This document shows, one piece after another, positions 44,842 through 64,000 of a stretch of 64,000 nucleotides of DNA (its first letter is position 1; each line of letters begins with the position of its first letter). The stretch comes from Flavobacteriaceae bacterium (lineage in GTDB: Bacteria > Bacteroidota > Bacteroidia > Flavobacteriales > Flavobacteriaceae). Under the pieces are notes generated by a model. The model worked only from the letters and a program-made list of their open reading frames with translations, was not told the DNA's origin and did no database searches. The stretch lies in the NCBI GenBank assembly GCA_018401115.1, contig JAGYKX010000007.1:314815-378814 (forward strand), given 5' to 3'. The position numbers and the translations under genes were made by a program.

Positions 44842-45362
44842 TATAGTAGTATTCCACTTATGTGTTTCACTTCATCTATAACATACTTTTGTTGAGGTGT
44901 AGTTAGTTTTACATAATCGTTCCAAAGGATACCACCATTCTTATCAATGGTTCCAACTAACATTAAATTCTTCCCCGTTGAATCATAGATTTTCATTCCG
45001 TTTGATTCCTTAACCACCCCAATAAGTTTTCGGTTAGAACCATTACCAATCCATCTGAACGGAACAACAGAGTTCATTTCTTTATTGATTGTATCTAATT
45101 TTTGATTTAATCCTAATGAGTAAGAAGGGAGATATTGTTTCCACTCACTATATCTTTCTAATAGTTGGGTAATATCACCATAATTCATTTCGGTTTCTTC
45201 CTTGAGAGTTTTAATCATCTTATCTCGTTCAGAGGAAATCCACCCCCTTTCACACATATGATTTAATACCAATACATCAGTGTATTTCATCAATCCCTTG
45301 ATTCCCGTTTCTTTTAGGGTTTGAACTAACCCATCAATTTCATAATCGTTTATTTCTTCCAT
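44841..45362 (-). CDS. Hypothetical protein
   Basis: 173-aa ORF, translationally coupled to the HTH gene and divergent from hsdM. Confidence 0.55.
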   Translation of the reverse strand: MEEINDYEIDGLVQTLKETGIKGLMKYTDVLVLNHMCERGWISSERDKMIKTLKEETEMNYGDITQLLERYSEWKQYLPSYSLGLNQKLDTINKEMNSVVPFRWIGNGSNRKLIGVVKESNGMKIYDSTGKNLMLVGTIDKNGGILWNDYVKLTTPQQKYVIDEVKHISGILL

Positions 45363-45484
45363 AATACTTTCACAGATAGTGTTGTTGTTTCACACTATTA
45401 CTTATAAGTATTACAAACTCAGAAAAGTGTTTTATCTCTATACTTAAAACATTAACTTTAGGTTTTTAATTTTGAAATTAAACT

Positions 45485-48442: not shown

Positions 48443-48444
48443 TT

Positions 48445-51321
48445 ATGTATGTACACCCTACCGAATATAGATACCAAAAAGAGATAATAGAATATCTTTC
48501 AACTCATGAGTTTAATGGGTTGAAGTATAATTATCTAAAGGATGATAGTTATGAATACGATAGGTTTAAGTGTATAATACCTTCAGAAACTTTAAAGTTT
48601 ATTGAGAAACACACAATCTGAAACTTATAAAAATATCCTCAAATACAAGGGAGAACCTGAAGGATTTATTTCAAAATTAGTTAACGATAGTGTTTTAAAA
48701 AATGGTTTAATCAAAACTCTTAAAGATGGTGTAGATGATTATGATGTTGGTCATGTTGATTTAATTTATTTTAACCCTGATAGAAGGATATCTCAATCTT
48801 ATTTAGAGAAATACCAAGAGAATAGGTTTGTTGTAATAGATGAATTTAAGTACTCTGTAAAGAACGAAAACAGAATTGATGTTGTTCTTATCATTAATGG
48901 AATTCCAATCCTTACAATGGAGTTAAAGAATCAATTTACTGGTCAATCAGTAAAGGATTCAGATAAACAATATGTTTATGATAGAAAACCTGATGGAGAA
49001 CCTCTTTTAAAATTCAAAAGATGTATTTGGTCATTTTAGTTTAGATAAATCAGAGATTCATTTTACCACAAATCTCAGAGGAGAAAAAACCAAGTTCTTT
49101 CCTTTCAATAAAGAAATGGATGTCAATAAAGATGGTTACAAGGTATCTTTCCTTTGGGAAGAGATTTTTAACCCTGTCTCTTTACTTGATATTCTTGAAA
49201 AGTTCGTTGTTCAAGTTATAGAAGTAAGTAAGGAGTGGAATGATAAAACCCAAAAGTTGAGAAAGAAAGAATGAAGTACTCATTTTTCCAAGATATCATC
49301 AATTAGAGGTAATTAGAAACCTTAGAAGTACTGTAAAATCAAATGGTATTGGTGGTAATTATTTAGTTCAACACACCACAGGTTCTGGTAAATCATATTC
49401 TATCGGATGGTTATCTCATAACCTCAATACTCTATTTGATAAAGATGATAATAAGATGTTTGATTCAATCATTGTTATCACTGATAGAAGAGTATTAGAT
49501 TCTCAACTTCAAAAGACTATAAAAGATTTAGAGGGAGTTGAAGGAGTAGTAAAACAAATAGATGAGGACTCTAAACAACTAAAAGGTTATTTAGAAAGTG
49601 GTGGTAGTATTATCATTACTACTATTCAAAAATTCTCAGTTGTTGTAAAATCCATTCAAGAACTCTCAGGAAAGTAATTTTGGTGTAATAATTGATGAGG
49701 TCCACTCTTCACAAACCGGTAAAAGTGGTTTGAATCTTAGAAAGGTTTTATCTCTCAATGAAGATGATGAGGTCACCAATACAGAACTACAAGATTACAC
49801 AAACTCAGTTGTTAAATTTCTAAGTGAAGAACAAAGAAGTAGAAAGAAACCACCTAACATTTCTTTCTTTGGATTTACAGGTACTCCAAAACAGAAACCC
49901 TTGAAATCTTTGGTACTGAATCAATAGTAGATGGAGAAACTAAAAAATTCCCTTTCACTCTTATTCGATGAAACAATCAATTAAAGAAGGTTTCACTTTA
50001 GATGTATTAGAAAACTTTACTTCTGTAAAAGATGGTTTAAACTCAAAATGAAGGGGGATGATAAAGAACTCCCTGAATCTAAAGTAAAACACGAATTGGT
50101 GAATTGGGTTGATTCATCTCCTGAGATGATATCTGAGAAAGTGAGAATCATTCTGAACCATTTAACTCAAAAACCTTTAATACTATTCCTAAAAAACTTT
50201 CAAGTGGGAAAATCCAAAACAGTGGTAAAGGGATGATTGTTTGTAGTTCTCAATATGATGTGGTACAATACTTCTTTGAATTGACCAAACAACTAAAAGA
50301 AAAAGGATGGTACGATAAATGTAAACCTTTATGTGGTTTTAGTGGTAAAATCGATTTTCAAGGTGAAAAATTCACTGAACAAGACCTCAACGATATAAGT
50401 GGTCACAATAGAAGAGAAAGTATCCCTGATGGGTTTAAAAACCCCGTCAATAGAATACTGATTGTTTGTAGTAAGTTTCAAACTGGTTTTGATGAACCTC
50501 TTCTTCATTCCATGTTTGTAGATAAGAAATTAAATGGTGTTCAATGTGTTCAAACTTTATCAAGATTGAATAGAACCACTTCTGGTAAAGAAGATACATT
50601 CGTTCTTGATTTTGTGAATAGACCCGAAGATGTTCAAAATTCATTTCAAGAATTCTATAAAACAAAAATTCTCTCTGGTGAAAGTGACCCTAACGAGTTG
50701 TATGGAATACTAAAAGATATTGAAGGTTATAACCTTTATAGACCATCTCAAATTGATGATTGGTTAGAAATATACTTTAGAAAGAACCGTAGTGATAAAG
50801 ATTTACAACCTTTAGTAGATACCATATACAATCAATGGATAGAATTACCTGATGATGATAGGGTAAGGTTTCGTTCAAAAATTGGTTCCTTTCATAAGAT
50901 GTATGAGTATATCACTCAAATCATTGATTTTAAGAATCAACCTAAATTGGAAGGTTACAACCTTTTCTTTTCATTACTTCATAAATTTCTAACTGTATCA
51001 AAACCTATTGTTGAATTAAATCTATCTGACTCTGTTTATTTAGATTCATATAAGTTTGATATTCAAGGTAAAAACAATTTGTTTTTAGATGATGTAGATA
51101 CACCCGTTGACCCTAAATCATATGATTCTGAAGGAATGTTAATGGAAGAGGAGACGGATTTACTTTCAAATATTATTAAAGGAATGAATGAAGTTCTTGG
51201 AGAGGGTTTACCTGAACATTTAAGAAAACCTCTCGAGAATCTTACCAAGAAAATTGAAGGTCACGAAGAGTTTGATACAACCTTAAAAATAACACAGAAT
51301 CTAACTCAAGAGATTGGTTAG
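48445..51321 (+). pseudogene. hsdR: Type I restriction endonuclease R subunit, fragmented into at least 8 pieces
   Basis: Fragments carry NRIDVVLIINGIPILTMELK (nuclease), QHTTGSGKS (motif I), IIDEVHSSQ (DEAH-like), FGFTGTP (motif III) and QTGFDEP...TLSRLNR (motifs V/VI), spread over several frames. Confidence 0.85.
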
Positions 51322-51481
51322 ATAAAATATATCTTGATATCAATAAAGAGAATTTTAAAACGATTTAGAAGGTTATAAGTTTTAAAAGATGAAAATATTA
51401 AGGATATAATTATTCAAGGTATTATTAATTCTAAAAAGGAAGTTCTTCTAGAGTTAAATAATTTTAAAAGAAAGTTATTAT

Positions 51482-52435
51482 ATGGATTTGTTAACAGATG
51501 TAGAAGATCTTTATGGAAACCCTATTTTACTTGGGAATGGTTTCAGTATTTTAAACAACAATAATTTTTCTTATAAAAACTTAATTAAAGAAATCATACA
51601 AAATAGTGAGGTTGACGTAAAAATATTTTAAATAAATTTAATGAGAAGAATATAGAAGAAGTCTTATACAAGATTCAGTCAAGTATTGAAATATGTAAAA
51701 TATTAGATATACCCAGTAAAAAAATAATTAAAACAGAAACTAAACTAATTAGATCTTTTATAGATATAATTAGTAAACTCCAACCCTCTTCAGACTCATA
51801 TTTTGAACCCTACAGTTACCACTATGGTAATCAACTTAAAAATTTGGTAGTATTTTTACCACTAATTACGATTTGAATATCTATTTTTAGTTTTAAAATA
51901 TTTTTCAAGAAATAACGGTCTTTTTACCCACTCTGATAACTTTTCGGGGTCAAACCAATATCTTACGTTTAATAATGAAAGTAACTCTAGTTATGAATCT
52001 CATATTTATTATTTACACGGAAATATATTGTTGTTTGGTAATAATCTTGAAATTTTTAAAGTAAAAAAACAGACGAGAACAGTAGTATTATTGATAAAAT
52101 AAAAGAAAACATAAATAATGGTAAACTTCCAATTATAGTTACTGATGGAAGTCCTGAATATAAATTGAACAAAATAAATGGAAATAAATATTTGAGGTTT
52201 TGTTTTGAAGAGTTTAAAAATCACAAGAGTGATTCCCTAGTTATATATGGACATTCATTAAGTGATTTAGATAAACATCTAATAGAATGTATTAACTCAA
52301 ATAAAAATTATAAAAAATTTATTTTGGACTATTTAAACCAACTGAAAATAAAATTAACCTTCAAAAGTCTAAGTTTAATGAAGAATTAGATGTCAAATTT
52401 TTGATTCTGAAATGTTATTTAACCCTGACATCTAA
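51482..52435 (+). pseudogene. DUF4917 family protein gene, broken by at least 5 frame breaks or stops
   Basis: MDLLTDVEDLYGNPILLGNGFS..., ...IFTTNYDL..., ...YYLHGNILLF..., ...LVIYGHSLSDLDKHL..., ...VKF(F)DSEMLF are DUF4917-like landmarks in shifting frames. Confidence 0.6.
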
Positions 52436-52440: not shown

Positions 52441-52600
52441 TTCACAATCTTTCTACTTAAATCTCGTTCCTTTACACTTATAGTTCAACACATGATATCG
52501 ATATAACAATGATACTGATACCAGATTAACTGAAATTAATATCCTTAGTTACAAGAAACCTTCAAGTTAATCTTCCGATTTGAACCTCTTAAAATTTTCG
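52441..52600. repeat. Intergenic repeat copy A (cassette-boundary element)
   Basis: Alignable by eye with copies B and C. It shares acaatctttct..cttaaatctc..tacacttatagtt with them, and the 15-nt block aaattaatatcctta (52533..52547) is identical in B. Confidence 0.7.
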
Positions 52601-52655
52601 AAGAGAGGGATTGTTATGTATTAAGAAGAGATTTGTGTTTCTTATTCACATTGAA

Positions 52656-52901
52656 TCAGTTGAATTTTCCTAAGTATTTGGTATAAACCAACTGACAGAC
52701 TTTATCCATTGATTTGAATACACTCATATCAAAATCAGAACTCTTGGTGATACTTGTAAGGGTAACTACCGAGTTATAGAGAACCTCATTATCCTCACGA
52801 GAGATTCGTTCGATAAAGTTGATATGATTACTTCCTTTAGGTGATTCAGAAACGATTACTTCTTCTGATTTTGAATCTATGGAAAAGAGAAAATTACTCA
52901 T
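52656..52901 (-). CDS. Small acidic hypothetical protein (candidate inhibitor or immunity partner of the upstream HNH protein)
   Basis: 81-aa ORF, 8 nt downstream of the HNH gene on the same strand, rich in D/E/S. Confidence 0.5.
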   Translation of the reverse strand: MSNFLFSIDSKSEEVIVSESPKGSNHINFIERISREDNEVLYNSVVTLTSITKSSDFDMSVFKSMDKVCQLVYTKYLGKFN

Positions 52902-52909
52902 AGGTTAGG

Positions 52910-53332
52910 TTATTGATGGAGGTGACATCTTCCGTTAGTATTTTTAGTTCGATTCTTACACCTAAGTCCTTTTTGAGTGGTTCCTGAACATTGAGTTGAG
53001 GTTACTGATTTAGAAGTTTTGGATTTAGTGGTTTCACCTTGACAACAGTTTGTTCCTACTATATTATTGTGAATCTTACAAACACAACTATTGGATTTAC
53101 TCCGATTACATCGTTGACAGAGAAGTTGGATATTCGATGGGTCATTCTTCCCTCCACACGAAAAGGGAGTGATGTGGTCATACTCTAAGTTATCGGTTCT
53201 TCCACAACATTGACACGAACCACCATCACGAGTAAAGACAATCTTTTTGGTAGTGGTGGAGATATTTCTACTTTGAGAGTAACCTGAGAAGGTGATTAGA
53301 ATCAGGGATATGAGAAGGAGTAATCTTTTCAA
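52910..53332 (-). CDS. HNH endonuclease domain protein with an N-terminal signal peptide and a Cys-rich C-terminal tail
   Basis: TTG start. (M)KRLLLLISLILITFSGYSQS signal-like N-terminus; HNH core CQCCG...EYDHITPFSCGG...NIQLLCQRCNRSK; tail GLRCKNRTKNTNGRCHLHQ. Confidence 0.65.
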   Translation of the reverse strand: MKRLLLLISLILITFSGYSQSRNISTTTKKIVFTRDGGSCQCCGRTDNLEYDHITPFSCGGKNDPSNIQLLCQRCNRSKSNSCVCKIHNNIVGTNCCQGETTKSKTSKSVTSTQCSGTTQKGLRCKNRTKNTNGRCHLHQ

Positions 53333-53370
53333 AACCAGTAATTTTTAAAAGATTTTACTAAATATAACTA

Positions 53371-53520
53371 AATTCTCTTCACCTCCCATTACTTCACACT
53401 TATAGTTAAATTAAAGGTATCGATATGACAATGTATTCGATACAGGTTTATCAAAAATTAATATCCTTACATACAAAAACATATTGGATGTTCTTTGGAT
53501 TTGAAAACTGTAAAGACTGT
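53371..53520. repeat. Intergenic repeat copy B (cassette-boundary element)
   Basis: Shares ttcacacttatagtt, tatcgatat, acaatg and aaattaatatcctta (53455..53469) with copy A. Contains an internal 7-bp inverted repeat, gtatcga (53417..) / tcgatac (53437..). Confidence 0.7.
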
Positions 53521-53868
53521 TCTGGTGTACAAAAAAAGACAATTCAAGAAGAAGGATTTCACACTAGAAAAGGACATCAACAAATTAAAAACATTCTATA
53601 CCCAAGAAGGAGAAAGTAATTGAGATGAAAATATATCTTACAAAATTTAATAACAGTTAGTGTTCTAAATTATCTTTATGAAATTAGTCCTTGATATACT
53701 AAAAAAGAGAAGTGTTTTTAGAAAATTCAATTATAAGTTTTCTAATAACAATGGAGATTTTGATTTAGGTTTGGAACCAGATAATCCATTAGTTCCCATA
53801 GACCCTAAAAATGGACCTAAGATTTTATTTAACAAAAAAGAACTAAGAGAGTAATCTTCTATTCTAAT

Positions 53869-55013
53869 TCAATCCCTATTGTAATCAATTAATCTAAATT
53901 GTTCTTTAGAAGTAACTCTTGGAAATTTTGATTTATAATCTTTCCACTTCCTTAGACATGTTTCATAATCATCATTATCTTCAATTCCACATAAATCACC
54001 TGAGTCACCATTATAATCCCAATCTCCCCAATCTTTAGTTTCAAAGAATTTAGGTATATCCTCTAACTCATATAAAAACCCTTCTTCAATTCCAGTTAAA
54101 TAAAAGTCATCTATTAGAACCCGATTATCTTGTATTTCAAACCATTCTCCATCTTCATATTCTTCCTCTATTTTATCTAGTTTGTGATATTGACCAAAAA
54201 CAATTATTCCACTACCGTCATTAAGTTTAAATTCCCCCCTATATCTTACTTCATGTATGATTCGGATTCTTATATCACCATGTTTTAAAACATCTTCTTT
54301 TATTATTTTTCCATCCTTATCCCATTCTGTTATTGATTCACAAATATCATTATTAAAAAACTCTTCCTTTTTTATTTTACCACTTTGAAAGTAGGTGAAC
54401 CATTTCCCGGATTTACTTCCCTTATGAAACTCTCCTTCACTTTTTAGTTGATAGTTTTTAAAATATCTTTTGTAAGAACCATGTTTAAAAAATCCAAACT
54501 GTCCACTTTTTAGATTTGACTCTAATTTTAAATTACCATTTTTAAAATATTCTTTTCTAACACCATATCTTTCATTGGTCTGAGTATCTATTTTGGTCTG
54601 ATTTTCCTCTAATCTTAAAACACCATTTTTATTCCATATTTTTTGAGATTGAGTAAAATGTTTATCGAAGATTTCTTCTTTTTTTATAGTACCACTTTGA
54701 AAGTAGGTGAACCATTTCCCATTTTTTTTGTAGTTGTCAATGTATTTACCTTCGAACTTTAAATTATTCCCTGGATAAAATTCTTTTTGGGATATTTTCT
54801 TATGATTTTCGAATATATTCTCTCTTTTATATCACCATTCTCATAATACAATCTCCACAAACCTTCTTGTTTATCATTTTGAAACTCTCCTTCATACATT
54901 AATTCCCCCGTTTCATAATATAATTTTTGAAGTCCGTGGTATAAACCATTTAATGTGGGAACGGTTGATTTTAATTTTCCATTTGGGTAGTAATCTTCCT
55001 TTATATCATCCAT
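53869..55013 (-). pseudogene. YwqK/MORN-repeat (antitoxin/immunity-like) protein fused to a C-terminal domain paralogous to 55024..55476; one frame break
   Basis: ORF 54759..55013 (YYPNGKLKS..YYETGELMYEGEF..DKQEGLWRLYYENGDIK) continues in the -1 frame as a 320-codon open frame (54831..53872). That frame has no start codon, so it is absent from the ORF track. One more A in the run at 54825..54828 restores ...GDIKRENIFENHKK.... Confidence 0.7.
53896..54231. repeat. Paralogous DNA duplication, copy 1 (pairs with 55042..55378)
   Basis: Long identical stretches, e.g. tatttcaaaccattctccatcttcatattcttcctctattttatctagtttgtgatattgaccaaaaacaattatt, are present in both copies. Confidence 0.85.
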
Positions 55014-55023
55014 GATACTACAA

Positions 55024-55476
55024 TTAATATTTTACTATTTCAAATTGTTCTTTAGAAGTAACTCTTGGAAATTTTGATTTATAATCATTCCATTTTTTTA
55101 GACATGTTTCATAATCATCTTCATCTTTAATTCCACACCAATTATCGGAGTCACCATTAAATTCCCTATCACCCCAACCTTCAACTTTAAAAAACTTAGG
55201 TATATCATCTAAATCAAATAAAAAACCTTTTTCATAATCTGTTAAATAAAACTCATCAATTTCTACTCGATTATCCTCTATTTCAAACCATTCTCCATCT
55301 TCATATTCTTCCTCTATTTTATCTAGTTTGTGATATTGACCAAAAACAATTATTTCATTCCCATCATTAAGTTTAAAATGTAGATTTCCACTTGATTTCA
55401 CTTCATGTTTAAGTTTTATTTTTACTTCACCATTTTTATGAAGAAAATTTGGTTTTTGTTTGTTGATATAATCCAT
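55024..55476 (-). CDS. Hypothetical protein, stand-alone paralog of the C-terminal domain of the YwqK-fusion gene (immunity-protein-like)
   Basis: Start trimmed to ATG 55476 (MDYINKQKPNF...). ...FKLNDGNEIIVFGQYHKLDKIEEEYEDGEWFEIEDNRV... is nearly identical to the neighbour. Confidence 0.6.
   Translation of the reverse strand: MDYINKQKPNFLHKNGEVKIKLKHEVKSSGNLHFKLNDGNEIIVFGQYHKLDKIEEEYEDGEWFEIEDNRVEIDEFYLTDYEKGFLFDLDDIPKFFKVEGWGDREFNGDSDNWCGIKDEDDYETCLKKWNDYKSKFPRVTSKEQFEIVKY
55042..55378. repeat. Paralogous DNA duplication, copy 2
   Basis: See copy 1. Confidence 0.85.
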
Positions 55477-56229
55477 TATTAAATATTTTTTCGTTAATGA
55501 TTCTCCCCATATGTTTTTTATCCTCAGTTGATACCGAACCAAAAGGAAGGTTTTTAGGTTCACCGTAAACTATTCTTGTTTCAAAATCACCTATTGTAAC
55601 TTTAAATAAATCTAACTTAAATGGTTTCCTTGGTTTACCTTCTTTAGTTTTTTCAATTACATGAAGTGTTTCAACATGTGTGGGGTCTAATAATTCCAAG
55701 TATCTTTTCCTAGTGGACAGAATAATTAAATTGGGTTTAACTTCTTGAACTAATCTTTTCCAAAGTTTGAATCCATTTAATCTTAGAAGTTCTTGTTCAT
55801 CAGATTTTAATCTACTCCAAGTTGGATTTGTGGATAAAGGAGAACCAATATCTGTATGGAGGACTTTATTGAAATTATTGTTTGGATAAAAACTACAATT
55901 TAATCCATTAAGTAAAGGTTCATACCCTGTAGAAAACCACTTTTTATAAGGTTCATTTTTAAAATAATCACATAACGATTTTTCAAGTGAAAGAGGGGAG
56001 TTTCTGTACTGTGGAAACCTAAAAAACGAATAGTTATCTAATTGATTAGATTGAAATTCAATGTTTGATGGATTAAGACCTACCGTTATAACTTTCTTTT
56101 TTTGATTAACGAATGATTCAATATCTCCAAAAAGAGTATTGGTAAACTCTTCCCTATAACATAGGGTAAATGTTTTTTATCGTTAAATTCATCAAGTAAT
56201 TCGTTTAAAAGAGACTCTGATAATATCAT
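55436..56229 (-). pseudogene. Hypothetical protein of about 264 aa, split by one frame break; weak resemblance to the uracil-DNA-glycosylase-like fold
   Basis: ATG 56229 (MILSESLLNELLDEFNDKK) runs into a stop. The -1 frame continues ...EEFTNTLFGDIESFVNQKKKVITVGLNPS... to the listed ORF 55436..55699. One extra A in the run near 56172..56177 restores the frame. VGLNPS and a late LPFGSVS loosely recall UDG-superfamily motifs. Confidence 0.4.
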
Positions 56230-56256
56230 TAGTTATGATTTAAGGTTAATTAAAAA

Positions 56257-56619
56257 TTATACTAAATACATGTAAAATCCTCTTATAGGATTTTCATATA
56301 AATCGTTAGTTATTTTGTTCTTTACCCCATTTTCATTATTAATTAAAGACCACTTATACTTTTTATTTTCAAGAAACTCTTCTACCCCCTCTTTAGTAGT
56401 GTCACTATTTATTTTATACTCTTTACTACCAATTTCAACTCTTATTCTTGTAGTATTTCGATTGTATTTATTTAAATCTCCTATTGTTTCTTTTTTAGTC
56501 AATTTCATCCAACAATCCAATAAATCATATAGTGTTTCTTTATTGTTAATAGAAACGGTTTCTATATAGTTTAAATCACTTGATAAATAGTTTCTCACTC
56601 TCTCTAGTTTTTCTTTCAT
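56257..56619 (-). CDS. Hypothetical protein
   Basis: 120-aa ORF, the first gene after repeat copy C. Confidence 0.5.
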   Translation of the reverse strand: MKEKLERVRNYLSSDLNYIETVSINNKETLYDLLDCWMKLTKKETIGDLNKYNRNTTRIRVEIGSKEYKINSDTTKEGVEEFLENKKYKWSLINNENGVKNKITNDLYENPIRGFYMYLV

Positions 56620-56756
56620 AATAATTTGTATTTAACAGGTTTGTTAATGTATTATCTAAAGGTCTCCGTATTTTTTTGTAAATGGATAATCTATTAATTT
56701 CCCTTTAGGAATATGACTATTATATAATTAATACTTAGAAAGTTAAGAATTTTAAA

Positions 56757-56865
56757 ACACAATCTTTCTTCTTATATCTCATTCCTTCACACTAATAATT
56801 CAAAACATAGGGGTAGGTATTCAAATTTATCTGAGTCAGGTTGTAAATAAATAATATTTCTCACT
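56757..56865. repeat. Intergenic repeat copy C (cassette-boundary element)
   Basis: acacaatctttcttcttatatctcattccttcacactaataattcaaaaca aligns with the first part of copy A. The second part (gagtcaggttgtaaataaataatatttctcac) aligns loosely with B (gatacaggtttatcaaaaattaatatccttac). Confidence 0.6.
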
Positions 56866-56887
56866 TCCGAATAACCTATTGGGTTGT

Positions 56888-57493
56888 TTATGAAACCTTT
56901 CTTTTAGTTTTTAGGTACTCTGAGTGAAGGAGTTCTTTGTTTCCGTTATCACACTTTTCAAACCAAGTTGAAATCCAATCCCCACCTCTTTTTTTGATGA
57001 AGAAATACTCTAAATATTCTTTATGTTCTTTGAATCTGTGATTGAGTTCCTTTTCATCGTAACCAATTCCTTCGTTGTTTGTAGATATCATATCAGTATC
57101 TGAAAACATCTCTCTGATTATTGGGTTATCCATTCTGAATGAAAGTGTGTAGTCATGACCAGACTTTGAAATATCTATAAGAACTACTGGTATAAGGTTC
57201 TTCATTTCTTTACTATCCTTATCCTTGTTTGATGGATGTAAATGAGAGTTGAACCCACTATTTGTGAGTCTATAAAAATCATTTGAGTCATTGATATTAT
57301 CAAAAAGTTCACCATTGACATCTCCTTTTACAATTCTACGAGTAACATCACTTGGAGGTATAACACCCCATTTAAAAATAATACAGTCAGGATAACTATT
57401 ATCATTTTCCCATTGGTCTTCACATGTGTATAGACCTACAATTTTAAACCCATATCTTTTTTCTACTTCTTTGATGTAATTACTTTTATTCAT
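56888..57493 (-). CDS. Hypothetical protein (gene 5 of a five-gene operon)
   Basis: 201-aa ORF with an 8-nt overlap with the upstream gene. Confidence 0.55.
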   Translation of the reverse strand: MNKSNYIKEVEKRYGFKIVGLYTCEDQWENDNSYPDCIIFKWGVIPPSDVTRRIVKGDVNGELFDNINDSNDFYRLTNSGFNSHLHPSNKDKDSKEMKNLIPVVLIDISKSGHDYTLSFRMDNPIIREMFSDTDMISTNNEGIGYDEKELNHRFKEHKEYLEYFFIKKRGGDWISTWFEKCDNGNKELLHSEYLKTKRKVS

Positions 57494-57680
57494 TTTGTAG
57501 TTTTTTAATTAATTCTTCTAAATATTCCTCATCTGTAAAAACCTTAAAAGGTATTGTGATAGATTCAAAAATTGATTCCACCACTATGGATGGAATAATA
57601 ATAAACAGTTGATGTATCATCATTGGTATTATTAACATCTTCAATTTTTGTTTGTGTTTTTCTAATTCATTTTCATTCAT
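57486..57680 (-). CDS. Small hypothetical protein with one hydrophobic segment (gene 4)
   Basis: 64 aa with MLIIPMMIHQLFIIIPSIVV flanked by charged helices. Confidence 0.45.
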   Translation of the reverse strand: MNENELEKHKQKLKMLIIPMMIHQLFIIIPSIVVESIFESITIPFKVFTDEEYLEELIKKLQNE

Positions 57681-57684
57681 TTTT

Positions 57685-58113
57685 TTACATGTTTACAAAC
57701 CGGTTGGATTTAAATTTTATATTCTTGATTTCTATTTCTAATCTTGATACTCTTTCTATTAAATCCTCCATACTTTCAGAGTTTCTAAATGTTTGAAACT
57801 TATGGTCTTTAAGTCTTTCTCTTTCCCATTGATTTCTGAACTTAGACATGAGGTAACCAAACGAATCGTACATATAATTCCATTGGTCTAACAGTTCATA
57901 ATCTGATAGTGAGTAGTCAAGTTCATTAGTTAAACCATCACTAATTTTCTTGTCAGTTGAAAAGGGTAGAGATGAAAAGACCTCATCCAAATATGTAGAC
58001 GAGGTCTCTAATAATTTCTCTCTATTCTTCTTAGATAACTTATCATTACATTGAATGTAAAAGTTATACCCCTTGAACTTCTTTTTTGAAGGAGTTCCAT
58101 CGTATTTTTTCAT
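57685..58113 (-). CDS. Hypothetical protein (gene 3)
   Basis: 142-aa ORF with a 4-nt overlap with the upstream gene. Confidence 0.55.
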   Translation of the reverse strand: MKKYDGTPSKKKFKGYNFYIQCNDKLSKKNREKLLETSSTYLDEVFSSLPFSTDKKISDGLTNELDYSLSDYELLDQWNYMYDSFGYLMSKFRNQWERERLKDHKFQTFRNSESMEDLIERVSRLEIEIKNIKFKSNRFVNM

Positions 58114-58622
58114 ATGTGGGTTACAGTTCCTTTTTCATACTCCCTCATGAACATAAACCCATTATAATTATCATCTACTATTAACCCTTGTTGAACTAAA
58201 AAGTAAATCCCATACATGATGTGGAACAATGTTTCTACAAAAAATCTATCTGAAAAATCAAGTTTAAGTTCATATGTTAAACCCTTATCTCTTGAGTTAA
58301 TGTTTTGAATTTTATTCCAATTCTCAATCCCTAATTCAAGATTATGTTTCACACTTCTAGTTAGAGATTTTAATCCATCTTTATATCCCTTTTCATTATT
58401 TAGAACTCCTTTTATCTCTTTTCTATAACACGATTGAACTTGATTAAAACATTTCATAAATTCTTCAATCATTTCTTTTCCATCAACATTTAATTCATTG
58501 ACTACTAAATTGAATCCCTCTTCTGTATTATCCTTATAATACATTCCAAACATTGTGGGTAATGAACTCTTCTTACCTTTTAGTTCATCTCTTTCTGATT
58601 TTCTTCTTTGTTGTCTTGTCAT
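58110..58622 (-). CDS. Hypothetical protein with an MTRQQRRK N-terminal leader (gene 2)
   Basis: 170-aa ORF. The N-terminus is shared with 59430..59789. Confidence 0.55.
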   Translation of the reverse strand: MTRQQRRKSERDELKGKKSSLPTMFGMYYKDNTEEGFNLVVNELNVDGKEMIEEFMKCFNQVQSCYRKEIKGVLNNEKGYKDGLKSLTRSVKHNLELGIENWNKIQNINSRDKGLTYELKLDFSDRFFVETLFHIMYGIYFLVQQGLIVDDNYNGFMFMREYEKGTVTHI

Positions 58623-58623
58623 C

Positions 58624-58995
58624 CTACTTAGATTTATAGATTATCTTTTCCTCTAAACCAACTCTCGAGGTAAGAATTTCTTTTATGAATAGATTAGTAT
58701 TTTCTAATGATATTAACTCTTCTAATATTTTAACTATGTTGTTAAGATTATCTATTCCATCTTTATCTAAAGTCAACCTATCTACTCTGTTCTTTATTTC
58801 ATTGTAAATCAAAGTCCAACTTTCATCTTTTATAAATTCCCTAATTAGAGGGTCTTCATAAAAACTTATTTCCTCGTCTTTTTCTTCATCGAAAAGAAAT
58901 GTGGTGTTAAATTCCTCTTTAAGTTCATTTACAGATTCAATTGTAAATTGTTTAAAATCAGTTATGATGTTTTCTAATTCTCCATTTGATTTCAT
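58624..58995 (-). CDS. Acidic hypothetical protein (gene 1)
   Basis: 123-aa ORF with a 1-nt gap to the next gene. Confidence 0.55.
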   Translation of the reverse strand: MKSNGELENIITDFKQFTIESVNELKEEFNTTFLFDEEKDEEISFYEDPLIREFIKDESWTLIYNEIKNRVDRLTLDKDGIDNLNNIVKILEELISLENTNLFIKEILTSRVGLEEKIIYKSK

Positions 58996-59099
58996 CTCCC
59001 AGTCTGAAGATATATTCTCACCATAATAAAGGTTGTTAAATCTCTTTTTCTATATAATTTCTTACTTGTTTTTCTTTTTGTTTTACTTCTAACTCTTTC

Positions 59100-59312
59100 T
59101 CATAAGTTTCCTTTTGTTATTACTATTATTTGTCCCCAATTCCAAGATGGTATATACCATTGAAATCCGTGTTTATCTAAAACTTGTTGGGTGATTTTGT
59201 TTTGAATGGATGAGGATTTTCCTGTCACAATTGTGAGTTCCGTTAGACCCTCTTTGATTGAGTTTTTTAGAACAAACTCTTCAACCAACGGAATGGATTG
59301 ATGGTGTTTCAA
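59100..59312 (-). CDS. Small protein, possibly Smr-domain-like
   Basis: 70 aa with a TTG start. ...EGLTELTIVTGKSSSIQNKITQQVLDKHGF... loosely resembles the Smr core (..v.iIhGkG...l...v...L). Confidence 0.25.
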   Translation of the reverse strand: MKHHQSIPLVEEFVLKNSIKEGLTELTIVTGKSSSIQNKITQQVLDKHGFQWYIPSWNWGQIIVITKGNL

Positions 59313-59361
59313 CTGTGTAAATCTATTATCATTTCATGTATTCAATCTTTTTAAATGTTTG

Positions 59362-59398
59362 AAAAGAAATACCCTCACCGTTTCTGATGAGGGTATTT
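59362..59398 (-). terminator. Stem-loop terminator after 59430..59789
   Basis: Stem aaataccctca / tgagggtattt with a 10-nt loop, and T-rich runs on both sides. Confidence 0.6.
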
Positions 59399-59429
59399 TA
59401 CTAATTTAATGTTGAGGTCTAATTCAACC

Positions 59430-59789
59430 CTATTCTTTCCATTTACCTATCTTCATTTTTTTCCAAATTTCTGTATGATGTTTATCAACCTCGATTCTTA
59501 AATGAAATGGTTTTTCATTGAATGTGAAATTGAAGTTTACTCCATTTCCTTCAATTGAAGTTCCACCTGTGTAATCACCAAGTTTATCTTCAATTACATC
59601 TCTAATCTCATTCATTTCATCAAAAAATTCATCTGATGAATTGTAATTACTATAATCAATCTGATTATACGAGTTATCCTGATGTTCGATGAGTTGTTTT
59701 TTTTCTAATTCCCTCATTTGTTGTACCATTAAGGGTTTTGATTCTTTCATTTCATCTCTTTCTAATTTTCTTCTTTGTTGTCTTGTCAT
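59430..59789 (-). CDS. Hypothetical protein with an MTRQQRRK N-terminal leader
   Basis: 119-aa ORF. Its first 39 nt are near-identical to the start of 58110..58622. Confidence 0.55.
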   Translation of the reverse strand: MTRQQRRKLERDEMKESKPLMVQQMRELEKKQLIEHQDNSYNQIDYSNYNSSDEFFDEMNEIRDVIEDKLGDYTGGTSIEGNGVNFNFTFNEKPFHLRIEVDKHHTEIWKKMKIGKWKE

Positions 59790-59810
59790 ATTTCTAATTT
59801 TTAAATTGTT

Positions 59811-59942
59811 TTACAATGGTTTTCCAACCTTTAATTTGTCATGTACTTCCATGACATACTTTATAAACCCATCACCTGGTTCTTGATTATCGAGAAGTAT
59901 TTTACCTTCATAACTGATTTGAACTCCGAAGAAATCTCTCAT
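59811..59942 (-). CDS. Possible 43-aa ORF (not in the track)
   Basis: MRDFFGVQISYEGKILLDNQEPGDGFIKYVMEVHDKLKVGKPL. Its ATG overlaps the stop of the preceding small ORF (ATGA). Confidence 0.3.
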   Translation of the reverse strand: MRDFFGVQISYEGKILLDNQEPGDGFIKYVMEVHDKLKVGKPL

Positions 59943-60085
59943 TCCCAAATTATATCCTTGAATGAAAAGTCATAATCTAATTCAAAGGATACTTTTTCAA
60001 CCTCACTTCTACAATTCAGGTAGAACATAAGAGGAACAAGTCGTTGGTCATCTCTTGTAAGTGATTTCTTTTTTCTTTTTTTCAT
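59939..60085 (-). CDS. Possible 48-aa basic ORF (not in the track)
   Basis: MKKRKKKSLTRDDQRLVPLMFYLNCRSEVEKVSFELDYDFSFKDIIWE. It starts 10 nt after the recombinase terminator. Confidence 0.3.
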   Translation of the reverse strand: MKKRKKKSLTRDDQRLVPLMFYLNCRSEVEKVSFELDYDFSFKDIIWE

Positions 60086-60094
60086 AATTTTTAG

Positions 60095-60125
60095 ACATAA
60101 AAAACCCCAAGAAATTTGGGGGTTT
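60095..60125 (-). terminator. Rho-independent terminator downstream of the serine recombinase gene
   Basis: The minus strand reads aaacccccaaatttcttggggttttttat. A second hairpin, cctcaa/ttgagg, lies at 60128..60147. Confidence 0.7.
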
Positions 60126-60284
60126 ATGACCTCAACAAATTGAGGTTTTGTTGTTGTTAATTAGATTGTTTTGTATTCAACCCATTCAAATGATGTTATT
60201 TCTTTAAATACATCGTTTTTACTCCATTGTTCGACCTTTTTTATTTCAAAGATGTCAATTGAGTTATGTTTTCTTATTTTCTTT

Positions 60285-60917
60285 TCACTCCTTGATAGTT
60301 TCATAAACTTCACTTCTTAATTTTTTAACCTTATCTATTGTTGAAGGAGAACATTTCCTCATTTCCATAATTTCTCTAACGGTATAACCATTGTCTAAAT
60401 CCTTGATGATGTTCTGAGATTTAGGTTTCATGAGAAATTTTTCAGGTGAAATAGTAGTTCCAATCTTTCTTCCACTATATCTCTCAGGATAAAACTTTTT
60501 CGTTCTTTCTATCCCCTCTTTTCTACGACTATCTATCATAGATTTTTCAAATGATGACATAATCGACAATAAACTGACCATCATCTCAGAAAAACTATCA
60601 ATAGTTCCATCTTCATTGAAATTTTGAATATTTGGATTTCTACAAACTACTCTAATGTTGAGGTCTGTTAGTTCCTTATAGGTAGATAATACATCAATTG
60701 TATTTCTTCCAAGTCTATCAATCGAGTGGATGTGAAGTTCTTTAAGTTTTCCTTCATCTATGAGTTCCTTAATCTGTCTCCCTCTCGGTCTTTCCCAAAT
60801 CGGGATGGTTCCACTACACCGGTCTGAAAGAACATAGTCAAATCCCCTTTCAGTATTCTTTAATTGTCTTAAATCTGATTGGTCTTCGGTAGAAACTCTT
60901 GAATAAAACACCTTCAT
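60285..60917 (-). CDS. Serine recombinase (resolvase/invertase family)
   Basis: MKVFYSRVSTEDQSDLRQ catalytic-Ser context, SIDRLGRN, and a C-terminal HTH (YTVREIMEMRKCSPSTIDKV). Confidence 0.9.
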   Translation of the reverse strand: MKVFYSRVSTEDQSDLRQLKNTERGFDYVLSDRCSGTIPIWERPRGRQIKELIDEGKLKELHIHSIDRLGRNTIDVLSTYKELTDLNIRVVCRNPNIQNFNEDGTIDSFSEMMVSLLSIMSSFEKSMIDSRRKEGIERTKKFYPERYSGRKIGTTISPEKFLMKPKSQNIIKDLDNGYTVREIMEMRKCSPSTIDKVKKLRSEVYETIKE

Positions 60918-61154
60918 AATGTTACTATTTTAGGTTGTTACTAATTATACTCTAATATAGTAATTTTTATTGAGATACACAAGTATTACAAATAAAAATA
61001 TGTTATCCTTTGGGGTATAGTCTAAATTAGTATCAACTTGGTGAGTGTGTCAAAGTTATAGAGGAAAACTTGGTAATGTCAGATAAAAAGAAAAACACCT
61101 ATTGTGAATGGTTACAGAGTGTTTCTCTTTTAATTATCTGAATAATCTATCAAT

Positions 61155-61502
61155 CTATCCTACCAATTCGTATTCTTTCTCCTTACTACTTAACATTGAT
61201 TCTAAAGTTTCTTTATCAGTCAACATTACCATCGTTCCACAATCTTTAACCATTTCCTTAAAACCTGGGAAATATTTAAACAAGGTTTGTTCTCTTTTAC
61301 CAATTTTTGATTTTGGAGGAATCTCTAATGGAATGAAAGGAACATCTTCTTCTAATTTATCAAAACCTATATACTCACAGAATGGTATTACCCCCTCTAG
61401 ATTCTGGTACTCAATGTGGTTATTATTATCATCCGTTTTTTCAAACAACAGATGAAACACAGTCATTTTAGTTGACCAACACTTTTCAAAAAATTCAACC
61501 AT
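61155..61502 (-). CDS. Hypothetical protein
   Basis: 115-aa ORF. It is co-oriented with its neighbours and preferred over the equal-length antisense ORF 61108..61455, which is low-complexity. Confidence 0.45.
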   Translation of the reverse strand: MVEFFEKCWSTKMTVFHLLFEKTDDNNNHIEYQNLEGVIPFCEYIGFDKLEEDVPFIPLEIPPKSKIGKREQTLFKYFPGFKEMVKDCGTMVMLTDKETLESMLSSKEKEYELVG

Positions 61503-61527
61503 TGTTTTACCATTATCTTTGAAAAAC

Positions 61528-62220
61528 TTATAAACCTCCCTTCTGAATCTTATTCTGAAATGATTTTTCCATTTCTATCAAATATTCTGGATGTTCCTTT
61601 TCCATTATACTCAAAGTATAACACGGTCTACAAGTATCAACACAAAACAATGTTCCATCACTATAAAGTTCCACTCTACTTTTCTCTCCATATTTATCTG
61701 TTTGAGTTGTAAAACCTTTCTCTTTACATTTTTTGACTTGAGAATCGTAAGAATCTTGACTGAGAAGAATATTTGATTCCACTCCATTATTTTTAAATTT
61801 ATTTCCCTCAATAACACCTTTTGGACATACATTTCCACCACTCAGTTGAGATGTAAACATTTTATATAATTCTAACTTATTCTCTTTTGATAGTTTTTCA
61901 AAATGTAATTGTTTCTTTCCTTTTGTTTGTTCCTTAAAATTCAAGTAGTCATTCCAAATAAGTGGATATTCAGATATATCTGTTTTTGAAAATGTAGTTT
62001 CTAATACACTTAGTAATACATTATTTAACAATTTCTGAATCCTTTCTGATTTATAATCATCGTTTGATTCTGTCCTTTTATTTAAATCCCCAACCATCAT
62101 TTTACTAAAACCTGACTCATTCCAATGTTCTAAAATATAGTTGATTAATGATTCTGTTTTTCTGAGTTTGAAACTCATTTCATCACCTTCTTTTCTTTTT
62201 ATCTTAATTTCTTGTGTCAT
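61528..62220 (-). CDS. Hypothetical protein with a Cys-containing C-terminal region
   Basis: 230-aa ORF. No motif recognised. Confidence 0.5.
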   Translation of the reverse strand: MTQEIKIKRKEGDEMSFKLRKTESLINYILEHWNESGFSKMMVGDLNKRTESNDDYKSERIQKLLNNVLLSVLETTFSKTDISEYPLIWNDYLNFKEQTKGKKQLHFEKLSKENKLELYKMFTSQLSGGNVCPKGVIEGNKFKNNGVESNILLSQDSYDSQVKKCKEKGFTTQTDKYGEKSRVELYSDGTLFCVDTCRPCYTLSIMEKEHPEYLIEMEKSFQNKIQKGGL

Positions 62221-62317
62221 AATCTAATTTTGAATTAATTATCTATTGAACTTGTCACTTCACATATAACCTCTGAGATAGTATTTTGATTTACCAAATC
62301 CTCTAGGTACTTCTTCT

Positions 62318-62919
62318 TTAACTTATCTGAAATTTCTTCCCAAACATCCCTACTGTATTTTTAAAACCTTCTTCAATTGAATTCGATTTGTAAATTGATT
62401 CAATCAACTTGTTTTGATTATAAGATAATTTACAAGGTTTGGGAATCACATTTATATGGATATGTGAATTGGAGTCTTTATGAACTCTAATATCAAATCC
62501 TGAAATTGGACAGAGTGGGTTGTCCTTTTCATACTTTGATAAATTTTCAATAAGATTTGTGTAGGTTGTTAACCCTAAACTCCATAAGAAAAACTTATTA
62601 CCCCCTGACCTATTTAAAACAGGAACATAAGTCATCATCATTGGTCTAATAAGTTTTCCTATTATCTGTTTTTGATAGATTTTTGTATTCTTAAATTATT
62701 TCCAAAATCCTCAATTGGGTCATTTTCTCCATAATTCATTGGGGAATGTATTGTCCCCTTTGTGGTGTGGTAAACATATCTCTCTATAAAGGGTGTTTCC
62801 ATAACCTTAAACGATTTTGGAACAATTCTTAATTGAACCGTTTCTCCTTTTTTAATCTTTAAATAACTCCATTCTCGTGTTGGAGTTTTCTCTTTCAGTA
62901 TCTCTTTAAATGATATCAT
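62318..62919 (-). pseudogene. Possible phage T4 gp32-like ssDNA-binding protein, split into two ORFs in different frames
   Basis: 62662..62919 (REWSYLKIKKGETVQLRIVPKS..ETPFIERYVYH) resembles the gp32 N-terminal OB region (GEWKLKLD..GQAVIRFLPS). 62318..62641 (TYVPVLNRSGGNKFFLWSLGLTTYTNLIENL) resembles SYWANILVV..GKVFKYRFGKKIWDKI. The zinc-ligand cysteines are absent. Confidence 0.3.
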
Positions 62920-62930
62920 ATTTTACTTTT

Positions 62931-63896
62931 TTAACTTACTAACTTATATTCTTCTTTAGTTGATACCCTTTCTTTTGAAGTAGTCCTCTTTAGGGTTCTT
63001 GATTCATTTTTATTACTAAAACCTTTATAATCTTGACTACTTGAAACATTAATTATATCCTGAGATGGGGAATCAAAATCAACACCCATTAGTGATATGT
63101 TTTCTTTATCAATACCTTTAGAAACAGAGAGGTAGTCTTGTTTTAATTGACCAAACTCTTCTCTATCATCATAATACTGTTTTGTTCTTGTATGAAAGGT
63201 TTTATGATACTTGATGTATTGAGGGAGTATCCTTTTCTGATTGGTTAGAACCATATGGAGTGGAGTTATAAACTCATTACCATCTTCTCCGAATAATTCA
63301 CCTGTGATTCCCTTTTTATCAATCTCTAAAACAACCACTGGTAGATTATCTGTTCCACCTGTACATTGTCCCCAACCAACATAATTAAATACTTTATGTT
63401 CATCGGATTGAAGGAAATACAATTGATTCCTTCTTTCAGAGTAATTGTGATTTTTGTGATTACTAAGAAGTCCATGAACTCTAATTTGATTCCAATTTTT
63501 TGGAGATGTTAAATGGTAAATCTTATCCTCACTTCCATAGAGTTCAAACATTTTTGAATCTCTAACTTGTGATAATGGGACATTTCCCCACCCAATCCAT
63601 CTACTTGAGGGTATGTGTTGAACTTCCACAAACCTATTATCATTATCTAGACAGTTTCTATAATTTCGTGTACCATCTGTATTAATAATTCGGTCATTTG
63701 TATTAATTCTTCCATGTTGAATCCAATTAGAATGGATTTTCTTTGAAATATTCATTTTATCTAACCTTCTATCCAATCCCTTTTCCCAATTAGTTTGGTT
63801 TTTATGATTCTCTAAAAAATCCATCTCTGAGATAAAACCTCTTTCTATGACATTTTTTGTTTGGGTTTGTCTAAACCCTTTTCTTAAATAACTCAT
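62931..63896 (-). CDS. Hypothetical protein with a Tpt1/KptA-like (RNA 2'-phosphotransferase / ADP-ribosyltransferase-fold) C-terminal half
   Basis: 321 aa. KIYHLTSPKNWNQIRVHGLL...RRNQLYFLQSDE...LPVVVLEIDKKGITGELFGEDGNEFITPLHMV..ILPQYI parallels E. coli KptA [67 protein letters not shown]. Confidence 0.3.
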   Translation of the reverse strand: MSYLRKGFRQTQTKNVIERGFISEMDFLENHKNQTNWEKGLDRRLDKMNISKKIHSNWIQHGRINTNDRIINTDGTRNYRNCLDNDNRFVEVQHIPSSRWIGWGNVPLSQVRDSKMFELYGSEDKIYHLTSPKNWNQIRVHGLLSNHKNHNYSERRNQLYFLQSDEHKVFNYVGWGQCTGGTDNLPVVVLEIDKKGITGELFGEDGNEFITPLHMVLTNQKRILPQYIKYHKTFHTRTKQYYDDREEFGQLKQDYLSVSKGIDKENISLMGVDFDSPSQDIINVSSSQDYKGFSNKNESRTLKRTTSKERVSTKEEYKLVS

Positions 63897-64000
63897 GTTT
63901 TAAACTTTTAAATTGTTTGAAATAAAAAGGGAGGTTATTAACCCCCCCTCTTCTTCTAATTATATAATCATTCATTACCCTTTGTAAACAAATGTTTTCT

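Follow-up and report, generated by a model that had tools for sequence, protein, structure and literature searches.

The genomic island, its repeats, and its recombinase

We analyzed a 64,000-nucleotide (nt) stretch of a Flavobacteriaceae genome (contig JAGYKX010000007.1, positions 314,815 to 378,814; below, the window means this whole stretch), in which three direct, non-coding, minus-strand copies of a repeat of about 150 bp (A, B, and C) separate blocks of genes, with the gene of a serine recombinase (Rec) upstream. Here we characterize the repeat, above all its conserved part, the element L, and its relation to Rec. At about 44 kb, the G+C content of the window changes from 38-41% to 28-32%, and it remains low through the window end; we therefore treat 44.5-64 kb as one acquired island. 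The window from 44.5 to 64 kb and beyond is a low-GC integrative genomic island, whose family is common in marine Flavobacteriaceae.

A first-pass annotation of the window had described three repeats between groups of minus-strand genes, and this was confirmed by a repeat search together with a profile search. The repeat search aligned A with B over 107 nt at 72% identity (52451-52557 and 53373-53479) and A with C over 51 nt at 86% identity (52443-52493 and 56758-56808), and about 130 columns could be aligned among all three copies. An nhmmer profile of A, B, and C gave three matches in the window, all on the minus strand (52430-52599, 53348-53518, and 56741-56893), with E values of 1e-37 to 1e-42 that are self-matches, the profile having been made from the same three copies; no fourth copy was found in the 64-kb window, where the next profile match had an E value above 1. 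The 15-nt block AAATTAATATCCTTA, previously noted as identical in A and B, occurs exactly twice, in those two copies, against 0.02 expected occurrences. Besides, TAWWAGTGTGAAR is found in B, in C, and at 45388-45400, three occurrences where 0.07 would be expected; A differs from it by one base.

The repeat is bipartite, with an L part of about 70-90 nt and an R' part that weakly resembles the leader (R) of a conserved 174-amino-acid (aa) gene. Copy A (52443..52562, minus strand) has its L part at 52562..52493 and its R' part at 52493..52443, and is followed by a convergent plus-strand gene. Copy B (53371..53485, minus strand; L part at about 53485..53416, R' part at 53410..53371) lies about 40 nt upstream of the start of an HNH nuclease gene (53332). 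Copy C (56758..56879, minus strand) comprises a diverged L part at 56877..56810 and an R' part at 56807..56758; it begins 11 nt past the stop codon of a 201-aa gene and is also present in a metagenome contig, L001 (related loci carry the letter L and three digits).

The recombinase gene (60285-60917, 210 aa) and an overlapping open reading frame (ORF) of 50 aa occupy 60161..60917 on the minus strand, and a terminator scan placed a terminator-like hairpin at 60121..60105, after the 50-aa ORF. A Pfam Resolvase match (E = 1e-19) over residues 3-141 of Rec confirmed the earlier claim of a serine recombinase upstream of the repeats on the same strand. The R-x-S-T motif, R68/G70/R71, and the helix-turn-helix (HTH) are kept in the alignment, and Rec combines a catalytic N-terminal domain with a C-terminal HTH, as small serine recombinases do. 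Its closest solved structure is that of Sin resolvase (2R0Q; E = 6.5e-9, residues 3-197); it also matches a PHROG 'DNA invertase' (E = 1e-31) and is annotated as a Pin-like invertase. Close homologues of Rec number more than 1000, mostly from marine Flavobacteriaceae. The rest of the gene layout drawn previously also held, with a Resolvase-domain protein at 60285-60917, an HNH protein at 52910-53332, and a MORN_2 protein at 54759-55013.

Element L and its relatives

The origin of the repeat became apparent from related islands. In L003 and L004, whose Rec is 92% identical to that of the window, the gene order is Rec, a 45-aa ORF, an intergenic region, the 174-aa gene, a 91-aa HTH_17 gene, a tyrosine integrase gene, and a tRNA gene or the chromosome. 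Alignment with these intergenic regions identified the window repeat as a version of the backbone region between Rec and the 174-aa gene. In general, the backbone of simple relatives reads Rec, a 44- or 50-aa ORF, L, R, the 174-aa gene, a gene for an Xis-like HTH protein, and an integrase (tyrosine or large serine), with the integrase end often at a tRNA gene. We observed a tRNA-Phe gene beside the tyrosine integrase in L003 (7030-7103), a tRNA-Val gene right after the rec operon in L148 (7373-7448), and, in L011 and L014, an island beside the formyltransferase gene (fmt) with a large serine recombinase instead of the tyrosine integrase.

The corresponding backbone genes of the window (44566..45362, minus strand) encode a 173-aa protein (44841-45362) and a 91-aa, excisionase-like HTH_17 protein (44566-44841) matching the phrog_66 excisionase. 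Both proteins are 53-60% identical to those encoded after L and R in L003 and L004. The two genes (45362..44566) lie at the border between island and chromosome, about 15 kb from Rec; no tRNA gene was found at this border near 44.2 kb. The leader of the 173-aa gene is an R element (45360..45417, minus strand; E = 2.7e-4 with an R profile built from the relatives only), containing the hairpin TAGTGTG...CACACTA and the short core at 45388-45400. The first-pass annotation had listed this shorter core upstream of 44841..45362; the core is present, but it corresponds to the R part alone.

An L profile built from the relatives only found A as its first match in the window (E = 3.6e-4), C as its third, and B as its fourth, all in the same register. 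The relatives-only R profile detected no R' in A, B, or C and matched 45360-45417 alone in the window; homology of R' and R is based on a short shared core and on position alone, and the likeness is weak. R' ends (...GATTGTG) at the point where R meets the 174-aa start codon. Judged from sequence, each of A, B, and C combines L with a diverged R', and the site at 45388 is R alone; each L-R' of the window fits what would be an orphaned backbone intergenic region.

L reads GAGGTTTCTTGTAACTGAGAAAATAC...TATCGGAGTGGTTTTTATATCGA...TTTTTT, and R ends at the start codon of the 174-aa gene. L is strand-oriented, has a sharp 5' edge, and measures about 75-90 bp. Its core of 26 bp (GAGGTTTCTTGT-AA-CTGAGAAAATAC) is followed by a T-rich spacer, two direct TATCGGAGT repeats 17 bp apart, and a T-run, the last of which is absent from window copies A-C. 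Comparison of the profile with itself revealed a weak dyad, TTTCT...AGAAA, centred on the AA of GTAAC, and internal direct repeats, GAGGTTTCT and GTGGTTTTT, about 49 nt apart; in all, L holds three to four direct GTAWC(G)GAG-like repeats. Over 121 unique L copies, conservation starts abruptly at (G)AGG and runs for about 75-90 nt, whereas information immediately 5' of L is about 0.1-0.3 bits; because the metagenome set was collected with an exact pattern of the core, the core appears more conserved there than it is. In 23 unique copies that were not selected by the pattern, the 26-nt core, the T-run, TCGG...TTTTTATATCG, and a second T-run stand out.

A search of relatives for the repeat, which the first-pass annotation had suggested, revealed a conserved L family. 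A 20-nt L pattern was found in at least 120 marine metagenome stretches (JGI, ENA, and TARA), against about 15 expected by chance according to our own estimate, and in three IMG/VR contigs. Here and below, pattern-anchored counts, including the 121 copies above, are made among the matches listed, out of the total of at least 120. The L profiles also match loci in GTDB metagenome-assembled genomes of Flavobacteriaceae that were retrieved via the 174-aa protein. The exact R' core pattern AAYTATWAGTGTRAAGNAAYGRGA had no match in GTDB genomes or IMG/VR, and nothing was found when viral contigs were scanned with the 174-aa family. The IMG/VR contigs with L (L135, L136, and L137), labelled viral, are 27-53 kb long.

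The R hairpin is kept by compensatory changes (AGAGG/CCTCT, ATAGG/CCTAT, AGAGA/TCTCT, and TAGTGTG/CACACTA in window 45360-45417, L003-L014, L036, and L090) and is followed by a conserved (T)ATGAAC box; RNAalifold did not call this hairpin.

As a short, non-coding, multicopy sequence present in many metagenome contigs, L could be taken for a generic interspersed repeat of the repetitive extragenic palindromic (REP) or miniature inverted-repeat transposable element (MITE) kind, unrelated to the recombinase or to module borders. We consider this highly improbable. The window has three copies in 64 kb, all on one strand and inside the low-GC island; L of the relatives is confined to an island context with backbone genes on its 5' side; and inspection of the flanks revealed no terminal inverted repeats or target duplications. 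The generic repeat that the first-pass annotation had named as the outcome contradicting its view is not what we see in the window and its relatives.

Linkage of L to recombinase genes

Linkage was assessed on contigs fetched solely for the Rec homologues P0027, P0054, and P0073 (66-72% identity). L lies beside the rec operon in all 25 of those with enough flank, and within about 250 nt of it in the same 25 contigs and in L003-L006. The association that had been proposed for the window thus extends to an element family physically tied to small serine recombinase genes. Two geometries occur, with L either 3-10 nt past the stop codon of the 44-aa ORF or 110-220 nt upstream of rec and divergent from it, and in both the 5' edge of L faces rec. 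In addition, a second recombinase clade, recB (about 31-36% identical), adjoins L in L011, L012, L014, L064, L082, L118, and L124. The HTH recognition helix (CSPSTIDKVKKL versus CSPKTITKVRKL) is kept between Rec clades that are about 31% identical overall, which parallels the near-invariant core of L.

On the 5' side, the neighbour of L within 400 nt was rec in 17 of the 82 pattern-anchored copies with at least 900 nt upstream, a ParB_N-DNA methylase gene in 16, a 60-aa HTH_17 gene (hth60) in 10, and something else in 39; about half of these copies thus have a backbone gene as their 5' neighbour. On the 3' side, the neighbour was variable in 91 of 100 copies.

The 26-bp hix and gix sites of the Hin/Gin/Pin invertases offer another comparison: Rec is annotated as Pin-like, and the core of L has 26 bp with a central AA. 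GGTTTCTTGTAA resembles a hix half-site of hixL, GGTTTTTGATAA, which we regard as a lead only. Unlike the inverted sites of these invertases, L is direct in the window and in 10 of the 11 other multicopy loci described below, and Rec has a resolvase rather than an invertase as its closest solved homologue. We also rejected a hix-like site with its centre on GA: it would place a half-site left of the L edge, where the flank carries no information.

L as a possible RNA or regulatory sequence

The first-pass annotation had likened the repeats to integron attC sites and proposed a search for attC-like bulged hairpins. Copies A, B, and C do not fold in this way on either strand: single-stranded DNA folding gave minimum free energies of -2.4 to -7.6 kcal/mol, with z scores of -0.67 to +1.05 (200 shuffles).

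With its conserved 26-nt 5' block and a T-run after a variable stem, L could also be a small RNA gene or an RNA regulatory element with a conserved 5' seed, a stem-loop, and a U-run. Indeed, GC-rich variants form good hairpins, e.g., GGCTCG...CGAGCC followed by TTTTTTT. We nevertheless regard an RNA as very unlikely. The mean z score against shuffles for a stem before the T-run was +0.1. RNAalifold gave no convincing consensus structure for the 121 L copies (both strands) or 17 R copies; its sole product was a 7-bp hairpin inside the pattern-forced core of L, which is broken in unbiased variants. The low information 5' of L leaves no conserved promoter there, and the window copies lack the T-run. 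Besides, Rfam 15 found tRNA-Ala alone in the window at the gathering threshold, and no match over A, B, C, or L at E ≤ 1.

A shared promoter or 5' leader of the next gene had been raised as another alternative, and it fails for L: the first ORF downstream, at 11-982 nt, was on the same strand in 63 cases and on the opposite strand in 60. The ORFs upstream were split 60 to 48 by strand. A sigma-70 promoter scan showed no enrichment, the sigma-70 consensus not being appropriate for Bacteroidota.

Arrays and breakpoints at L

Direct-repeat arrays with variable cargo, as proposed for the window, recur in other loci. Eleven further distinct loci have several L copies (the identical L036 and L100 being counted once), and in 10 of these all copies are direct, including L090 with five and L021 with three; by our own arithmetic, the chance of ten loci being all direct is about 6e-5. 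The orientation of L is thus independent of neighbouring genes (63 versus 60) yet constant within arrays (10 of 11 loci). The sole inverted pair is in L149 (1830-1899, minus; 6168-6238, plus), where the 4.3-kb segment in between holds the recombinase and may be invertible. The units that separate L copies measure 0.4 to 8 kb. Their genes, on either strand, code for lipoproteins, surface proteins of the DUF285 and Kelch kinds, MORN-like proteins, and proteins of unknown function. One such gene, between two L copies in L101 (1708-2727), codes for a DUF285 protein of 562 aa and contains eleven tandem repeats of 72 nt; L081 and L160 have related copies.

The earlier view of the repeats as module boundaries is supported, and recombination breakpoints map to the element. 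Among the loci, 57 pairs of L copies share the left flank and have different right flanks, and eight pairs show the converse; in L062/L115 and L051/L060, similarity begins exactly at the 5' edge of L. Left and right flanks recombine freely around L. Directly relevant to the window is the mosaic L132, a metagenome contig, which carries module 2 of the window (53869..56619, between copies C and B; from its 120-aa gene onward) at 96% identity, whereas its L part is 86% like that of copy A and 46% like that of copy C, and its R' is 77% like that of C. A recombination breakpoint is therefore placed between L and R'. The first-pass annotation had each gene block carrying the element at its 3' end; L132 agrees with this for L, which fits the upstream block, but R' groups, if weakly (77%), with the downstream block.

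We next consider how such arrays may have arisen. L090 contains R-L-R-L tandems, and in L014 and L008 cargo lies between L and R without a second L. These arrangements, together with decayed backbone fragments and the lack of filled/empty site pairs, speak against clean cassette capture and for whole islands or large blocks that accreted and then decayed. The arrays look like products of L × L cointegration or tandem integration and subsequent illegitimate deletion of redundant backbone. A perfect palindrome with a 12-bp stem, TAACTTCTGTTAGATTTAACAGAAGTTA, lies about 15 nt upstream of some internal L copies and about 25 nt downstream of others, as a second repeated junction element; it occurs in L021 (397-428, 3867-3898, 6831-6862, and 11783-11814), L008, L012, L013, and L090. 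L090 also has a 65-nt repeat, TTTTATTTCAATTATCACATCACAATTTATTTTG..., beside minus-strand cargo genes (1040-1104, 4249-4313, 4583-4647, and 5151-5215).

A regulatory explanation deserves attention at this point. L-R may be the regulatory intergenic region of the island operon of the 174-aa and Xis-like genes, with operators for HTH_17 proteins, a terminator-like T-run, and a leader hairpin; its window copies would have been left by tandem sister islands that lost their backbone genes, shuffling would reflect homologous recombination between conserved stretches of backbone, and L-R would itself be no recombination site. Simple islands do have L-R directly upstream of the 174-aa gene, with R ending at its start codon and the R hairpin kept by compensatory changes. 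Direct repeats such as the three to four GTAWC(G)GAG-like repeats of L are a usual binding target of excisionase-type HTH proteins, and HTH_17 genes (hth60 and that of the 91-aa protein) are near-universal in these islands. The presence of L in islands without a visible rec, the same-strand genes after B and C, and ParB-methylase fragments before internal L copies, as products of accretion and decay, would also be accommodated. On the other hand, L often stays with rec, hth60, or the ParB-methylase gene while R and the 174-aa gene are kilobases away (L008, L014, L082, and L118) or absent altogether, as in the arrangement ParB-methylase, L, integrase. The orientation of L is unrelated to that of flanking genes, copy A precedes no gene, and homologous recombination in sequence as divergent as that of the L132 mosaic, where L is 46% and the cargo 96% identical, is unlikely. 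We consider the regulatory explanation the main alternative to the one favoured below, possible but on balance less likely than not.

An integron-like platform, in which circular cassettes with L (or L-R') are inserted and excised by the serine recombinase so that the array grows and shrinks, is in our view improbable. It would account for direct arrays with small one-gene units of 420-1100 nt between L copies (L036, L037, L057, and L070), for blocks of L, cargo, and ParB-methylase that occur in two backbones, some flanked by L on both sides (L012, L019, and L064), for the sharp edges on both sides of the element and the breakpoint between L and R', and for the linkage of Rec and L. Small serine recombinases of the resolvase/invertase type, however, favour intramolecular reactions, which counts against a platform. 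So does the report that cointegrate formation is rare (PMC12217951). Moreover, cassette gain or loss, which the first-pass annotation had proposed to look for, was not seen: among about 165 loci there were no filled and empty site pairs, no precise L-bounded indel polymorphism, and no circular junctions, L036 and L100 alone being identical contigs. Most islands have a single L, the arrays include remnants of backbone genes that differ in length, an attC-like structure is lacking, and inter-L cargo, when looked for in other contexts, yielded mainly the ParB-methylase gene. Active cassette capture is unproven. We would give only a slight chance to the broader idea that islands of marine Flavobacteriaceae hold an analogue of the integron built on a serine recombinase, in which L, with R', would be the recombination site and the Sin-like recombinase would cut out L-bounded cargo as circles and insert it again, possibly in trans where islands lack rec.

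Interpretation and comparison with known systems

The explanation that we favour, tentatively and with somewhat less than even confidence, is that L is a res-like cis site of the Sin-like recombinase of the island and that the array consists of accreted modules bounded by such sites. L would be the cis-acting target of the adjacent recombinase, its size and layout recalling the 86-bp res of Sin, which has a crossover site, a bendable spacer, and a direct-repeat accessory site. A, B, and C would then be L-R' junctions, remnants of the tandem accretion of three modules of island origin between Rec and the backbone of R and the 173-aa gene, with L × L cointegration or tandem integration as the route and redundant backbone genes lost afterwards. 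Rec could delete or exchange modules between the window copies, these being direct repeats. Homology of the copies, their linkage to Rec, constant polarity, direct arrays, and breakpoints at the element form the observed basis of this explanation. We infer from them that Rec binds and recombines L and by what route the array was built.

Several observations weigh against it. The core of L is symmetric at 6 of 12 positions, and its half-sites have no clear match to the downstream direct repeats; the assignment of subsites within L is speculative. The conservation of the core is, as noted above, overstated by pattern-based retrieval. Many L copies sit in islands without a visible rec, which was within 400 nt in only 17 of 82 cases, and the adjacency of Rec and L could therefore be mere backbone synteny with the unit of L, R, and the 174-aa gene. 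No L of the window abuts rec, as module 1 (about 3.3 kb) and the terminator intervene. In L021, L070, L090, L018, and L116, the internal L copies come after 5' fragments of the ParB-methylase gene that differ in length, which shows illegitimate deletions and not clean site-specific events. The lack of any precise L-bounded indel polymorphism among about 165 loci stands against this explanation as well.

The closest known systems include the Sin/beta-type resolvases with their res sites of 86-90 bp. Sin res has 86 bp and comprises a crossover site, a spacer for HU/IHF, and a direct-repeat site II (PMC2428073). Here too, a small serine recombinase whose best solved homologue is Sin has a site of about 75-90 bp directly beside its gene, the sites are in direct repeat, and L has its 26-bp block at one end, a T-rich middle, and a direct-repeat pair at the other end. 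Unlike in Sin res, the dyad of L is weak, its direct-repeat motif does not clearly match the core half-sites, and its subsites are putative; besides, L is chromosomal, borne on an island, and arranged in multicopy arrays with cargo, whereas the classical system has one site per replicon.

Salmonella genomic island 1 (SGI1), on which a resolvase and res are carried by an integrative island with cargo (In104) at res (PMC12217951), is by analogy the nearest documented counterpart on an integrative island. Both have an integrase and a separate small resolvase, a site by its gene, and accessory cargo at the site. The res of SGI1, however, is Tn3-like with three subsites, and its cargo came via a res-hunting transposon with 5-bp duplications (PMC12217951), whereas here no transposase or target duplications were seen, the phylum is another, and the site is repeated between cargo blocks.

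The first-pass annotation had called the array integron-like or rAID-like, and membership in either class fails on defining features. As in the integron (IntI, attI, and attC), there is a recombinase at one end, followed by co-oriented blocks and a recurring, sharp-edged element of about 100-150 bp with an internal breakpoint. Unlike in the integron, the recombinase is a serine and not a tyrosine enzyme, an attC-type bulged hairpin is lacking, no circular junction was seen, the blocks are multigenic (two to eight genes each in the window), and the inter-L genes of relatives lie on either strand. No IntI or XerD-type recombinase was found in 44-64 kb, the Resolvase-domain serine recombinase being the sole recombinase there.

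The recombinase-associated acquired interbacterial defence (rAID-1) clusters of Bacteroidales have as their defining feature a XerD-like tyrosine recombinase that is at least 44% identical to BF9343_RS08045 (Ross et al., 10.1101/471110). The rAID-like part of the claim that stands is the low-GC, co-directional genes with repetitive intergenic sequence after a recombinase in a member of Bacteroidota (minus-strand blocks from 59789 to 52656 with A-C; G+C content of 28-30% versus 38-41% elsewhere in the window), as well as one MORN_2 (YwqK-like) protein. The XerD-like tyrosine recombinase is missing, its place being taken by a PF00239 Resolvase protein. Nor is the cargo recognizable as an array of immunity genes: defence genes and genes without an assigned function make up most of it, one MORN_2 protein being accompanied in the window and its relatives by type I restriction-modification (RM), AbiH-like, HNH, DUF285, and Kelch proteins and lipoproteins.

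Full-text literature searches found papers on rAID and on resolvases but no description of the L element or of the island family. L is thus an apparently undescribed but widespread DNA site of about 90 bp beside Sin-like serine recombinase genes, marking the places of cargo-module exchange. If the recombinase has L as its target, ocean Flavobacteriaceae have a very common modular island system, with at least 120 metagenome loci, that uses one short DNA site for exchanging genes for defence and surface proteins; the resolvase and res known from the genomic island SGI1 would extend to another phylum and to multisite arrays, and a testable gene-cassette organization with a serine, not a tyrosine, recombinase would be at hand. 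Should there even be an integron counterpart, arrays of defence, immunity-like, and surface-protein genes would be built and reshuffled by it. In practice, the core of L provides a simple sequence tag for the variable regions of these islands in marine metagenomes.

Cargo genes of the window

Module 1 (56888..59789, minus strand), between the recombinase operon and copy C, has seven or eight small genes, one of which encodes a Smr-domain protein. Module 2 (53869..56619, minus strand) contains 120-aa, 264-aa (frameshifted in the window), 179-aa, and MORN_2 genes, followed by a degenerate duplicate of the last two. In a separate comparison, this cargo matched L132 at 95% identity. Module 3 (52656..53332, minus strand) consists of the HNH nuclease gene (52910-53332), whose product has a signal-peptide-like N terminus, and a gene for an 81-aa protein. 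From copy A to R, opposite-strand cargo (45485..52389, plus strand) comprises a type I RM system (hsdM, hsdS, and a fragmented hsdR) and a DUF4917/AbiH-like gene; this unit runs into R without an intervening L, and its homologues are found in L011, L045, and L121. The MORN_2 protein is the sole recognizable immunity-like cargo of the window, the rest being HNH, Smr, type I RM, or AbiH-like or having no Pfam or PADLOC match. Exact-protein look-ups of the window cargo returned L001 alone or no match.

L001 is 99.84% identical to window 64000..55325, with 14 differences, 13 of which are single-base indels, mostly in homopolymers. The 228-, 354-, 264-, 158-, and 77-aa genes are intact ORFs in L001 but split in the window, and hsdM/hsdR (45485-51321) are similarly fragmented in the window. 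Because L001 has the intact ORFs and the differences are mostly homopolymer indels, several apparent pseudogenes of the window, probably with the fragmented hsdR among them, are best treated as sequence errors.

The cargo also contains internal repeats. The tandem paralogous duplication of the 179-aa and MORN_2 genes in module 2 is visible as 53896-54195 versus 55042-55341 and 54311-54408 versus 54623-54720, the duplicate at 53869-54750 being without a long ORF. In hsdS, 47224-47256 repeats as 47834-47866 and 47649-47716 as 48276-48343, as expected for type I specificity half-repeats. In module 1, the products of the 170-aa and 119-aa genes have an N-terminal module in common: the 60-nt 5' ends of the genes are 85% identical (58577-58636 versus 59744-59803) and encode MTRQQRRK(S/L)ERDE.

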